DNA of 32,366 nucleotides from Escherichia phage PhiR44_1, in the sequence record PV340563; one strand, 5' to 3'. Below the pieces are notes generated by a model. That model searched no databases, was not told the origin of the DNA, and saw nothing but the letters and a program-made list of their open reading frames with translations. Positions 5,910 through 9,312 of this stretch are shown one piece after another (the first letter of the stretch is position 1; each line of letters begins with the position of its first letter). The position numbers and the translations under genes are program-made.

Positions 5910-5918
5910 CAATAATGA

Positions 5919-5954
5919 TTGACATGCTTGATTTTGTATTCACAAATCAAGCAT
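5919..5954 (+). promoter_or_regulatory. Putative promoter/operator of the cargo MTase: TTGACA -35-like hexamer followed by an 11-bp inverted repeat
   Basis: TTGACA at 5919..5924; ATGCTTGATTT (5924..5934) and AAATCAAGCAT (5944..5954) form a perfect 11-bp inverted repeat with a 9-bp spacer, about 65 bp upstream of the TTG start. Confidence 0.45.
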
Positions 5955-6020
5955 CAAGTAAACATCGATGATGAGAAAGAACAATGCTACAATCCCCACA
6001 GCATTAGAAGGAGGTTTATC

Positions 6021-7070
6021 TTGATTAAGGTTGTTGATTTATTCTGTGGCGCGGGTGGCTTGACTCACGGTCTTCAGAAGTCGGGGCTTAATGTAGTTGC
6101 AGGTTATGATATAGATGCAGCCTGTCGATTTGCCTATGAGACAAATAATAAATCACTCTTTGTCCAGAAAAGTGTTACAGACATTGAGGACGGCGAATTA
6201 GTTAAATATTTCGAAGGAGCGAAGGTTCGAGTTTTGGCTGGTTGTGCCCCATGCCAACCTTTTTCAAGCTATACCAATAGTGCTAAATTAGGGGTAGTAC
6301 GTTCAAAAGATAAAAGATGGTCTTTGCTTTATAGCTTTGCTAAGCAAATTAAATTGGCAAAGCCAGATATTATTACAATGGAAAACGTTCCCCGAGTGGT
6401 GAATCATAAGGTTTTTAAGGACTTCATTAAGTCTCTTAAAAATGATGGCTATTTTGTTTGGTATGGGGTGGTGTTTTGTCCAGACTATGGAATGGCACAA
6501 AGTCGTTCAAGATTAGTGTTATTGGCATCAAAATATGGAGAAATAGAAATAATTCCACCAACTCATGAGAAGAATGATTATAAAACGGTGCGAGATATAA
6601 TCGGTAATCTTCCTGAAATTAGTGCCGGTGCTGTTCACGCTGGAGATAAACTACATCGCTCTGCATCATTATCTGATATTAATATAAAAAGAATAATGGC
6701 ATCAAAACCTGGTGGAACATGGCGTGATTGGCCAGAAGAGCTAAGAGCAAAATGTCATACAAAAGAAAGTGGTTCTACATATACTGCTGTATATGGGAGA
6801 ATGTGTTGGGATAAACTTGGACCGACAATTACAACTCAATGTATTGGATATGGGAATGGACGCTTTGGGCACCCTGTCCAAAATAGAGCATTAAGTTTAA
6901 GAGAGGCTGCGCTATTACAGTCATTCCCAGAAAAGTATGAGTTTTGGCCTGATGATGTAAAAATTGAAATGAGAACAGTTGCGCGTTTAATAGGTAATGC
7001 TGTTCCTGTTAGGCTTGGTGAGGTCGTAGGTGAAACTATTTTAAAACATTTGTCAGAAATGAATATTTAA
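6021..7070 (+). CDS. DNA (cytosine-5)-methyltransferase (cargo)
   Basis: m5C MTase motifs in order: I DLFCGAGG, IV GCAPCQPFS (catalytic Cys), VI ENV, VIII QSRSR, X GNAVPVRLGEVVG. Likely TTG start at 6021 with AGGAGG 7 nt upstream; the ORF-track ATG at 5919 gives an implausible N-terminal extension. Visibly AT-rich compared with the phage backbone. Confidence 0.85.
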   Translation: MIKVVDLFCGAGGLTHGLQKSGLNVVAGYDIDAACRFAYETNNKSLFVQKSVTDIEDGELVKYFEGAKVRVLAGCAPCQPFSSYTNSAKLGVVRSKDKRWSLLYSFAKQIKLAKPDIITMENVPRVVNHKVFKDFIKSLKNDGYFVWYGVVFCPDYGMAQSRSRLVLLASKYGEIEIIPPTHEKNDYKTVRDIIGNLPEISAGAVHAGDKLHRSASLSDINIKRIMASKPGGTWRDWPEELRAKCHTKESGSTYTAVYGRMCWDKLGPTITTQCIGYGNGRFGHPVQNRALSLREAALLQSFPEKYEFWPDDVKIEMRTVARLIGNAVPVRLGEVVGETILKHLSEMNI

Positions 7071-7082
7071 AACTTATGTCAT

Positions 7083-7104
7083 CCCCCTGTCAAAAAACAG
7101 GGGG
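7083..7104. terminator. Bidirectional intrinsic terminator hairpin between the convergent MTase and GHKL genes
   Basis: CCCCCTGT-caaaaa-ACAGGGGG perfect 8-bp stem with A/T-rich flanks, centred in the 40-bp gap between the two stop codons. Confidence 0.6.
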
Positions 7105-7110
7105 GTATAA

Positions 7111-9069
7111 TTAGATTCCCTCAACTATTTTCATAATTCTAGCTGCATCATTCTTTTTGTCTTGATATTCAGCATAGGCTTGTTTTGATTGCACGATTAG
7201 GTCATTATATGTCAATATTTTTCCATTGATAGAAAGTAATTGCATATTTATAAAGTGTTGGTTCTCTTGTAAATATCCAGAGCCAACCAGGAATATTACT
7301 TCTATATGCGGTATATTTCCACCTGGGCAATTTTTAGGGTTATTGGAGAACCATTGTGTCGTTGCCTGTACATATTTATTACCTTGTGCGACTAGGTTCA
7401 TTATATCTGGGTGCACTTTAGGTCGTTTCATCTCAATAATTACATGCTTGCCAGAAACGGTTTTGAAAGCGATATCAATACGAGCACCGCTAGCAGCATC
7501 AGGGTTTATCTGTTTTAGTTCCTTGGTCAATGTTTGCTCCATAACAGATGTGCCTGTGACTCTTTCCCATGAAGGATCCAATAACCATAAATGATCATAT
7601 AAATACATTTGTACAGCTCTTTCAAGCTGATTTTCATCAGTTATTTTTTGGAATTTTTCAATTACTTTAAGGCGTTGCGAAGTAATTTCATAAAACATGC
7701 TTGCTTCAATGTCATTGACAGATGCAAATACATCTTTAAAATTTTCTGATTGAAGGTTGCTTATTTTATCTAATGCATCAAGGTTGTCTTGAATTCTAAG
7801 TCTTTCAAAGGCTAATACCGTATTTTTTAATACGGTTTTTCTTGCTGCTTTTTGTTCTTCCTCATTACCAGAAAAACGGAATGTGTTTACTCGTCCAATT
7901 AACTTTTCGGCACTTTCTCTCTCATGTTTTTTGAGAGAATTCAGCCATTCACTTACTATTGGAGTATTGCTTTTAACTTCATTTACTCCTTTTTCGCGTC
8001 TCCATTTATCCCAATCTTTATCGATTAGTTGTAGCGTTCTTTCCAGAAAACCTTTAAGTACAGGGTATCTTGGATCATTCTGTTGTAGTTTTTGACGAGA
8101 AGATGTTGCCATATCAGGCTTTTCGTTATCATCTAGAAAATCGGCGACTATTTCACCGACCAGATAATTGGTGAATACTTTAGCACTTCCAAATTCTAAT
8201 AATATGTCCTCCTCAAAAACACGTCCGTGAGAGATTACAGTAATGCTGTTGTTAGATATTTCAGGGTCTTTCTTTAACTGTGATGGCTTAACTACACTGC
8301 CAATGTACCCACTAACTTTTACATCTTTTCCTTCAAAGGTAATAGTATTTGGTAATATGTTTTTTTGTGTGATGTTTGTGCAGGATTTTATCCTTTCAGG
8401 GTCGGATTCGCCAAATTCCCAAATGAACTCGAGATCTGAAAGGAAATCTCTGTCTGCCGGTGTAATATCGGTCCCATTAATTTTAACTGTAAAGTTATGG
8501 TTGGGGCCAATAATGCTAAATCGACGAGCTATTCGCTTTCTGAGGTAAGTTTGAGTCCTATCAATGGCTTTTTTTAGTTCAAATAATTTAATTGTAGTGC
8601 CGTAAGCAAGATTTTCGGGTATTTCAAGGGAGTCAGCAATATAGTTTTTTGATTCTTTGATACTTTGCTGTAAATCTTTGACATCTACCTCAAAGGCCTG
8701 AGGCTGTTCCCCCTTTTTGTACGAATAAACTTGGATTTTATTGGCAAGTGAAAACATGGCAAGCTTACCAATACCTTTTCTGCCCATAACTTGACGTTTT
8801 AGATGATCGCTTTTGGCTCTTCCATGTTCCCTGCGAGCATAACCGACTTTTAGGAACTTATTAATAATGTCATCTTTAGACATGCCATGACCATCATCTT
8901 TAATGATGACCTCTCCTTTCTCAACATCAAGTGTAATTTCTACATTTTGAGCATCTGCATCCCATGCATTTGATATAATCTCAGTTAGTACCGCGGGAGT
9001 ATTGGAATAGAGACTCATCCCTAGGTGATTTAGCACATTCAAATCAATTTTAATTTCGAAATCTGACAT
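7111..9069 (-). CDS. GHKL-type ATPase fused to a putative PD-(D/E)xK nuclease domain (MORC-like restriction/defence protein candidate)
   Basis: 652 aa. N-terminal Bergerat-fold motifs: N-box EIISNAWDA, G1 DDGHGM, G2 GRKGIGKLAMFS. C-terminal ...RIDIAFKT...GKHVIIEMKRP fits the D...(D/E)xK nuclease signature. AT-rich; convergent with the MTase. Confidence 0.8.
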   Translation of the reverse strand: MSDFEIKIDLNVLNHLGMSLYSNTPAVLTEIISNAWDADAQNVEITLDVEKGEVIIKDDGHGMSKDDIINKFLKVGYARREHGRAKSDHLKRQVMGRKGIGKLAMFSLANKIQVYSYKKGEQPQAFEVDVKDLQQSIKESKNYIADSLEIPENLAYGTTIKLFELKKAIDRTQTYLRKRIARRFSIIGPNHNFTVKINGTDITPADRDFLSDLEFIWEFGESDPERIKSCTNITQKNILPNTITFEGKDVKVSGYIGSVVKPSQLKKDPEISNNSITVISHGRVFEEDILLEFGSAKVFTNYLVGEIVADFLDDNEKPDMATSSRQKLQQNDPRYPVLKGFLERTLQLIDKDWDKWRREKGVNEVKSNTPIVSEWLNSLKKHERESAEKLIGRVNTFRFSGNEEEQKAARKTVLKNTVLAFERLRIQDNLDALDKISNLQSENFKDVFASVNDIEASMFYEITSQRLKVIEKFQKITDENQLERAVQMYLYDHLWLLDPSWERVTGTSVMEQTLTKELKQINPDAASGARIDIAFKTVSGKHVIIEMKRPKVHPDIMNLVAQGNKYVQATTQWFSNNPKNCPGGNIPHIEVIFLVGSGYLQENQHFINMQLLSINGKILTYNDLIVQSKQAYAEYQDKKNDAARIMKIVEGI

Positions 9070-9254
9070 ATAGTCGTTCCTTGCTGAGAGTTCATTTTAG
9101 TTTCATGCAATCAATAGGTTAGGCTGAAGATAAAACCTTAAGATAACCAAAGCAAGTGTTCATTAGCGGCTTTGTTTCATGACATGATGTGTGTCGCTTT
9201 TTGCATGAAACTGCATTTGTTTCTTATATCTGCTCTTTTTACATACTGCTAGTG

Positions 9255-9276
9255 TTGACATGGCTTTGACATGGCT
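9255..9276 (+). repeat. Tandem direct repeat TTGACATGGCT x2 next to cos
   Basis: Two contiguous exact 11-bp copies, each containing TTGACA. Confidence 0.7.
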
Positions 9277-9312
9277 GTGCAACCGCATTAAAACCGCCCC
9301 ATGAAGCGGGCG

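Follow-up and report, generated by a model that had tools for sequence, protein, structure and literature searches.

The window analysed here, the whole 32,366-nucleotide stretch of Escherichia phage PhiR44_1 (sequence record PV340563), is a P2-like prophage with an integrase, a cox-type gene and replication gene A on the left and portal gene Q, terminase gene P, and capsid and tail genes on the right. Between the stop codon of gene A (position 5909) and the cos sequence lies a cargo island of about 3.4 kb. The gene content of this interval is limited to two convergent genes, one encoding a 349-residue 5-methylcytosine (m5C) DNA methyltransferase and the other a 652-residue protein with an ATPase and a nuclease domain. 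The island is very probably a Type II restriction-modification (R-M) cassette of the BbrUII/HgiDII family, inserted at the hotspot between gpA and cos of this P2-like prophage of E. coli.

Family membership of the 652-residue protein was established by profile search. The protein matched the NCBIfam equivalog NF050001, 'BbrUII/HgiDII family restriction enzyme', with 751.4 bits against a cutoff of 550 (E = 9e-226); the match covers residues 4-651 of the protein and positions 1-658 of the 659 in the profile. With the PADLOC models, REase_II was assigned (E = 2.3e-91); the only other matches in that search were a second REase_II model and a weak one to MzaB, and none was to SduA. An identical 3.8-kb locus is present in 30 of 5426 complete E. 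coli genomes, and at this locus RefSeq places a 'BbrUII/HgiDII family restriction enzyme' (WP_001279022) beside a 'DNA cytosine methyltransferase'. Homologs of the family make up about 6000 clusters at 90% identity, many of which carry the BbrUII/HgiDII name in Enterobacterales, Vibrio, Aeromonas, Shewanella and Pasteurellaceae. A search for the prototype R.HgiDII, seeded with a family member from Chloroflexi, returned no protein identifiable as R.HgiDII.

The domain organization of the 652-residue protein was examined by profile, structure prediction and conservation. Pfam HATPase_c_3 matched residues 26-149 (E = 2.3e-25), and the GHKL motifs could be located at E30/N34/D37 (motif I), D58-G60-G62 (II), G96-G101 (III) and G157-T158 (IV). 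In an AlphaFold2 model with a mean pLDDT of 80, the GHKL domain leads into a beta-rich middle domain, after which come a long helical region and a C-terminal alpha/beta domain. Foldseek aligned about 400 columns of this model to the N-terminal and middle domains of Hsp90, GRP94 and TRAP1 (E about 1e-13), and residues 191-478 are a candidate DNA clamp or recognition region. The C-terminal domain resembles the E. coli SduA structure in fold comparison, and Pfam SduA_C (DUF4263) was matched by 22 of 26 C-terminal domains of the family, with a best E of 5e-7. GHKL motifs I-IV together with E483, D532, E546-x-K548 and Q562-xxx-Y566 are invariant in 80 of 81 homologs; the GHKL residues are likewise invariant in a set of 32 homologs. 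As judged from the model, the C-terminal domain is probably a nuclease of the RecB/Shedu type. The profile match, the nuclease residues and the fold all agree with an earlier note on this DNA, made from the letters and their translations, which had proposed a GHKL ATPase at the N-terminus and a PD-(D/E)xK-like motif at the C-terminus. The invariance of the ATP-binding and hydrolysis motifs suggests that the enzyme uses ATP, which would be atypical for a Type IIP enzyme. Searching the PDB by sequence with the 652-residue protein gave only generic Hsp90/HtpG GHKL matches, and hence no family member appears to have a solved structure.

The second gene encodes an m5C methyltransferase that is catalytically complete by its motifs. 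It aligned with positions 1-323 of the 324 in PF00145 (E = 2.8e-55), with PADLOC MTase_II (E = 1.6e-88) and with TIGR00675 (130 bits; cutoff 100.65). The full canonical set that the same note had described was recovered, with motif I at residue 6, IV (PCQ) at 77, VI (ENV) at 121, VIII (QSRSR) at 160, IX at 294 and X (GNAVP) at 325, and a target-recognition domain (TRD) at about residues 169-286. Translation starts at the TTG at 6021, which is preceded by AGGAGG and agrees with RefSeq; the TTG at 5919 that opens the longest open reading frame (ORF) is an over-extension. The top PADLOC names for this protein were DrmMII and DruM. Membership in DISARM or Druantia was rejected, as the partner genes (drmA/B/C; druA-E) are absent from the two-gene island and these matches reflect generic m5C homology.

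Table 1. Features of the cargo island and its flanks in the window.
Feature	Position	Strand	Basis
m5C DNA methyltransferase, 349 aa	6021..7070	+	PF00145, PADLOC MTase_II, TIGR00675, motifs
BbrUII/HgiDII-family restriction endonuclease, 652 aa, identical to WP_001279022	7111..9069	-	NF050001, PADLOC REase_II, RefSeq name
GHKL ATPase domain, endonuclease residues 1-190	8500..9069	-	HATPase_c_3, conserved residues, Foldseek
Beta-rich middle (transducer-like) domain followed by long helical region, endonuclease residues 191-478	7636..8499	-	AlphaFold2 model, Foldseek
Predicted PD-(D/E)xK nuclease domain, Shedu/NucS type, endonuclease residues 479-652	7114..7635	-	E483, D532, E546-x-K548, Q562-xxx-Y566
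Shine-Dalgarno AGGAGG, 7 nt 5' of the methyltransferase TTG	6008..6013	+	Read from sequence; fits RefSeq start
Inverted repeat UCCCCCUGUC-N6-GACAGGGGGG within the 40 bp that separate the convergent stop codons	7081..7106		Folding energy
Low-GC cargo island at the P2 tin/old (gpA-gpQ) hotspot	5910..9293		GC profile, flank comparison with other P2-like phages
Replication endonuclease gene A, left flank	3636..5909	+	PF05840 Phage_GPA, E = 7e-124; RefSeq 'replication endonuclease'
Portal protein gene Q, right flank	9501..10535	-	PF04860, E = 2.9e-14; RefSeq 'phage portal protein'
cos cohesive-end sequence GGCGAGGCGGGGAAAGCAC, right border of the hotspot	9313..9331	+	Sequence read; Rousset et al. 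put the hotspot beside cos

The pairing of the two genes is conserved far beyond E. coli. A homolog survey of species-representative genomes yielded 344 relatives of the endonuclease, and the locus counts given here refer to the best 80 of these, which are full length, 36-44% identical to the window endonuclease and distributed over many bacterial phyla and the archaea. Sixty-two of the 80 loci have an m5C methyltransferase no more than 3 kb from the endonuclease homolog, usually 2-90 bp away, and about 52 of these 62 methyltransferases belong to the lineage of the window enzyme (44-56% identity). Forty-five loci have the two genes co-directional with the methyltransferase first, and 12 have them convergent as in the window. 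The convergent pair is retained at 44-59% endonuclease identity in Shewanella and Gallibacterium, in P2-like prophages at other positions, and in Alcanivorax, on the chromosome outside any phage. On the strength of this linkage, the orphan methyltransferase that the earlier note had named as a refuting outcome was rejected. The simplest reading of that note, a restriction system carried by the prophage with the methyltransferase shielding self DNA, is supported.

The cassette, or its endonuclease, was also seen in P2-like or K139-like prophages of Shewanella, Gallibacterium and V. cholerae (loci L002, L003/L004 and L087), placed beside the cI-type repressor/integrase region or gpD and not between gpA and cos. 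These positions imply independent entry into different hotspots of related phages. Poribacteria are well represented among the loci, with four (L039, L065, L070 and L073). One archaeal genome of 3.17 Mb ('uncultured Cenarchaeum sp.', contig OY282369.1) carries at least six full-length paralogs (L034, L041, L043, L048, L053 and L083) that are 73-95% identical to one another, none with a closely linked cognate m5C methyltransferase; L041 has only a match of 26% identity, 1.9 kb away. Both Poribacteria and Cenarchaeum are sponge symbionts.

Comparison with characterised enzymes provides a candidate for the recognition sequence. GTCGAC is the site of M.HgiDII, an m5C methyltransferase characterised by experiment, and a Vibrio methyltransferase (P0208) that is 58% identical to the window enzyme is named after HgiDII by its source. 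Across 50 linked methyltransferases, identity to the window enzyme is 55% in the TRD and 45% in the N-terminal core; a TRD more conserved than the core suggests one shared specificity. Taken at the level of sequence, the cassette is probably a functional Type II R-M system and an isoschizomer of SalI, and we regard GTCGAC as the likely, though by no means assured, recognition sequence. M.PstI is an N6-methyladenine (m6A) enzyme and BbrUIII is a PstI isoschizomer. On these grounds, a mix-up of II and III probably explains the dispute in the literature over the methylation type of M.BbrUII, given as N6-adenine in one account and as m5C, aligned with M.HgiDII, in the other (PMC5829577 versus PMC5867850).

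A cassette of the same family that recognizes a sequence other than GTCGAC is a less likely possibility that nevertheless deserves serious weight. The window endonuclease is only 36-44% identical to cross-phylum members, and specificity appears to vary within the family. Three endonucleases (L017, L019 and L074), 41-42% identical to the window enzyme, have a convergent methyltransferase 3-11 bp away that belongs to a different m5C lineage (about 35% identical, with a divergent TRD); this pairing suggests a different specificity within the same endonuclease family. The window methyltransferase, however, falls in the majority lineage with the conserved TRD, and the equivalog model and the source annotation of P0208 both indicate HgiDII.

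A working scheme for the BbrUII/HgiDII-type R-M cassette can be proposed from these data. The methyltransferase would mark the recognition site, most likely GTCGAC as in the M.HgiDII prototype, on host and prophage DNA, and the 652-residue enzyme would cleave unmarked DNA through its C-terminal PD-(D/E)xK domain. Incoming phage DNA would thereby be restricted, and loss of the prophage would probably be penalised. The GHKL ATPase and the middle domain most likely dimerise as an ATP-operated clamp that positions or licenses the nuclease, a mechanism suggested by other GHKL proteins and by the hypothesis put forward for VcSduA, a GHKL-containing Shedu nuclease. Given their convergent layout and the hairpin terminator that they have in common, the two genes are expected to be transcribed independently of each other. 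In Bifidobacterium breve UCC2003, the M.BbrII gene is essential by transposon sequencing, which implies an active cognate nuclease in that organism.

Several observations weigh against this assignment. In vitro activity of R.BbrII has reportedly not been demonstrated, and Type IIP enzymes do not typically carry a strictly conserved ATPase. The site GTCGAC is an extrapolation, the family having been placed by profile and not by alignment to R.HgiDII, M.HgiDII and BbrUII. In the prophage, GTCGAC occurs three times against 8-11 expected, which is a mild depletion, and one that is not diagnostic, since the backbone lacks many other GC-rich palindromes entirely. The defence phenotype and the ATP dependence of the E. 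coli cassette are predicted. Finally, 18 of the 80 family members have no adjacent m5C methyltransferase and yet keep all catalytic residues, so that the fold can evidently work, or be tolerated, unlinked, as in VcSduA.

The palindrome counts were taken over positions 1-5909 and 9301-32366. The 6-bp palindromes CAGCTG and GGCGCC (14 expected each), TGGCCA (11 expected), AGGCCT (7 expected) and GAGCTC (6 expected) are all absent there, and GCCGGC occurs 3 times versus 31 expected. This scarcity looks like broad restriction-site avoidance by the phage.

The 652-residue protein could be an ATP-gated nuclease like VcSduA, that is, a type I-D Shedu, that senses a feature of the invader such as free ends or replication intermediates and not an unmethylated site; the methyltransferase would then be functionally independent, for example an orphan shielding prophage or virion DNA from other restriction systems. 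The architecture is that of VcSduA, a single-gene system that loses defence in ATPase or nuclease mutants, and its counterpart in the window resembles SduA_C in the C-terminal domain, as well as the structure of E. coli SduA. The 18 solitary members, with their catalytic residues intact, lie among assorted defence-island genes (PLD, GIY-YIG, GmrSD, Schlafen-like helicase), and only one divergent m5C methyltransferase was found among their neighbours. We nevertheless judge this explanation improbable. The protein passes a restriction-enzyme equivalog and no Shedu model of PADLOC, a single methyltransferase lineage with a conserved TRD is tightly linked at most loci, and the essentiality of the B. 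breve methyltransferase argues that the nuclease attacks unmethylated self DNA.

Methyltransferase-less endonucleases are 82-84% identical to linked ones (L016 versus L040 and L025; L022 versus L028) and keep all catalytic residues, which implies that the methyltransferase was lost recently or that one encoded elsewhere gives protection.

It is well established that Type II R-M pairs can behave as selfish addiction modules, the cassette travels as a unit among prophage positions and chromosomes, and in B. breve loss of the methyltransferase is lethal, but a cassette that mainly stabilises the prophage by post-segregational killing, with phage defence incidental, is very improbable at a hotspot dominated by validated anti-phage systems, and such a role is in any case compatible with defence, the present data not separating the two.

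The island is set off from its flanks by base composition. GC content is 0.32-0.40 over about 5900-9200 and 0.52-0.60 in the flanks, and other P2-like phages match the window in the flanks only, the cargo between them being different. The right end of the island was placed at about 9293 (corrected from 9312). Neither tin nor old is among the genes between A and cos. The start of gene A follows the RefSeq annotation; its longest ORF begins at 3594. We take the sequence GGCGAGGCGGGGAAAGCAC to be P2 cos. The spacer between the convergent stop codons folds into a hairpin with a 10-bp G+C-rich stem (-17.6 kcal/mol, z = -3.0 on the plus strand; -17.7 kcal/mol, z = -2.0 on the minus strand) and is likely a bidirectional terminator. 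The earlier note had thus correctly read an AT-rich segment on a GC-rich backbone, the absence of tin and old, and two convergent genes around a shared terminator. Its placement of the segment in a known anti-phage hotspot also holds, as the gpA-gpQ hotspot has been described with 1,650 arrangements in 18,150 loci and is dominated by validated anti-phage systems (Rousset et al. 2022).

No convincing promoter was found for either island gene in a scan that gave 9 promoter-like sites versus 10.6 expected from shuffling. A TTGACA hexamer at 5920-5925, directly after the gene A stop codon, overlaps the inverted repeat GCTTGATTT-N-AAATCAAGC (5920-5958), whose fold (-13 kcal/mol, z = -1.9) is not significant; this element could be an operator/promoter for the methyltransferase or a terminator of gene A. 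Just within the right edge of the island, at 9254-9275, is a tandem direct repeat of two copies of TTGACATGGCT, in which the second TTGACA is followed 17 nt on by TAAAAC, forming a promoter-like element directed at cos. A second low-GC dip (0.37-0.44) was noticed at the position of the P2 Z/fun hotspot, where a 197-residue ORF (24686-25279, plus strand) is flanked by the genes for tail-fibre assembly (23937-24464) and for the tail sheath (25609-26799). Its product matches phrog_3829, a family of unknown function (E = 2e-137), gave no match in Pfam or PADLOC and may be an uncharacterised moron or defence gene.

The locus itself is already known, being named in RefSeq and listed in the published P2 hotspot catalogue. 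The earlier note knew of no named, experimentally characterised defence family built in this way, a statement contradicted by NF050001 and by three published descriptions. R.HgiDII was described as an N-terminal GHKL domain with a C-terminal domain 'unassigned to any known fold' (Orlowski & Bujnicki 2008, PMC2441816). The paraMORC3 proteins of proteobacteria and bacteroidetes combine GHKL and S5 domains with a RecB-like E-D-ExK nuclease and occur in R-M contexts (Iyer, Abhiman & Aravind 2008). VcSduA, with GHKL and DUF4263 domains, defends against phage and requires both its ATPase (E27) and its nuclease (K557) (Adams et al. 2025, PMC12137116). Novelty is further undercut by the exact gene pair of the island (WP_001279022) already appearing in the P2-hotspot survey (Rousset et al. 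2022). Assigning a nuclease to the R.HgiDII-type C-terminal domain is a small update on the 2008 description and no discovery. What is new is minor: the Shedu/NucS-like model of that domain, the frequency of methyltransferase linkage and the higher conservation of the TRD relative to the core.

The cassette is one more case of P2-like prophages bearing R-M systems as superinfection barriers, and its residual value is mechanistic, in what a strictly conserved GHKL ATPase does in an enzyme that is nominally Type II and in the relationship between R-M and Shedu systems, as the nuclease domain ties classical R-M enzymes to the Shedu defence family. As a tentative proposal, which we hold to be possible and somewhat short of probable, the HgiDII/BbrUII enzymes and the GHKL-type Shedu proteins would form one lineage of ATP-gated DUF4263 nucleases that has switched repeatedly between R-M and solitary lifestyles, and cleavage of unmethylated sites by the P2 cassette would need ATP binding or hydrolysis by the GHKL clamp. 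This proposal draws on the shared architecture and nuclease fold, the invariant ATPase motifs and the existence of unlinked members up to 84% identical to linked ones. If it is true, the need for ATP would explain why activity, for example that of R.BbrII, is hard to show in standard restriction buffers. The E. coli prophage copy offers a convenient model for a family that is widespread among species-representative genomes.

Comparison with known systems places the cassette as follows. It shares with P2 Old and Tin the genomic position and a presumed role in prophage-encoded exclusion of other phages, but there is no sequence or domain kinship with them; Old is an ATPase-TOPRIM nuclease, and neither Old nor Tin uses methylation. 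A Type IV methylation-dependent nuclease was rejected as incompatible with the linked methyltransferase, and the 'Kinase-methylase' of Table S6 in Rousset et al. (2022) is a different, four-gene system. MORC and paraMORC R-M systems (Iyer et al. 2008) resemble the cassette in having GHKL+S5-type ATPases beside DNA methyltransferases and nucleases in mobile R-M contexts, whereas the island consists of two genes only, with the nuclease fused to the ATPase. MORC in the strict sense, with its superfamily II helicase partner, was rejected for the lack of a helicase gene in the island; by published description, the window protein fits the paraMORC3 branch and not MORC proper.

VcSduA, from the WASA lineage of V. 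cholerae, was once annotated as paraMORC3 and is now a type I-D Shedu (PMC12137116). Its make-up corresponds to that of the window protein, a polypeptide of similar size: both have GHKL motifs I-IV and a middle domain, and the DUF4263-type PD-(D/E)xK nuclease at the C-terminus of VcSduA is also predicted for the window protein. It is a single gene with no methyltransferase, is non-toxic when expressed alone and has a list of 543 hits in Table S7 (PMC12137116), whereas the window protein is tightly linked to a methyltransferase and matches restriction-enzyme and not Shedu models in PADLOC and NCBIfam. P0047, a homolog from V. cholerae, proved to be a prophage member of the R-M type and not VcSduA. 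HgiDII of Herpetosiphon and BbrUII/BbrII of B. breve differ from the window cassette in setting, the latter being convergent and carried by a gammaproteobacterial P2-like prophage while distant members are mostly co-directional with the methyltransferase first; the window endonuclease matches NF050001 over its full length, has the GHKL and C-terminal domains described for R.HgiDII and, like the HgiDII system with M.HgiDII, is paired with an m5C methyltransferase.

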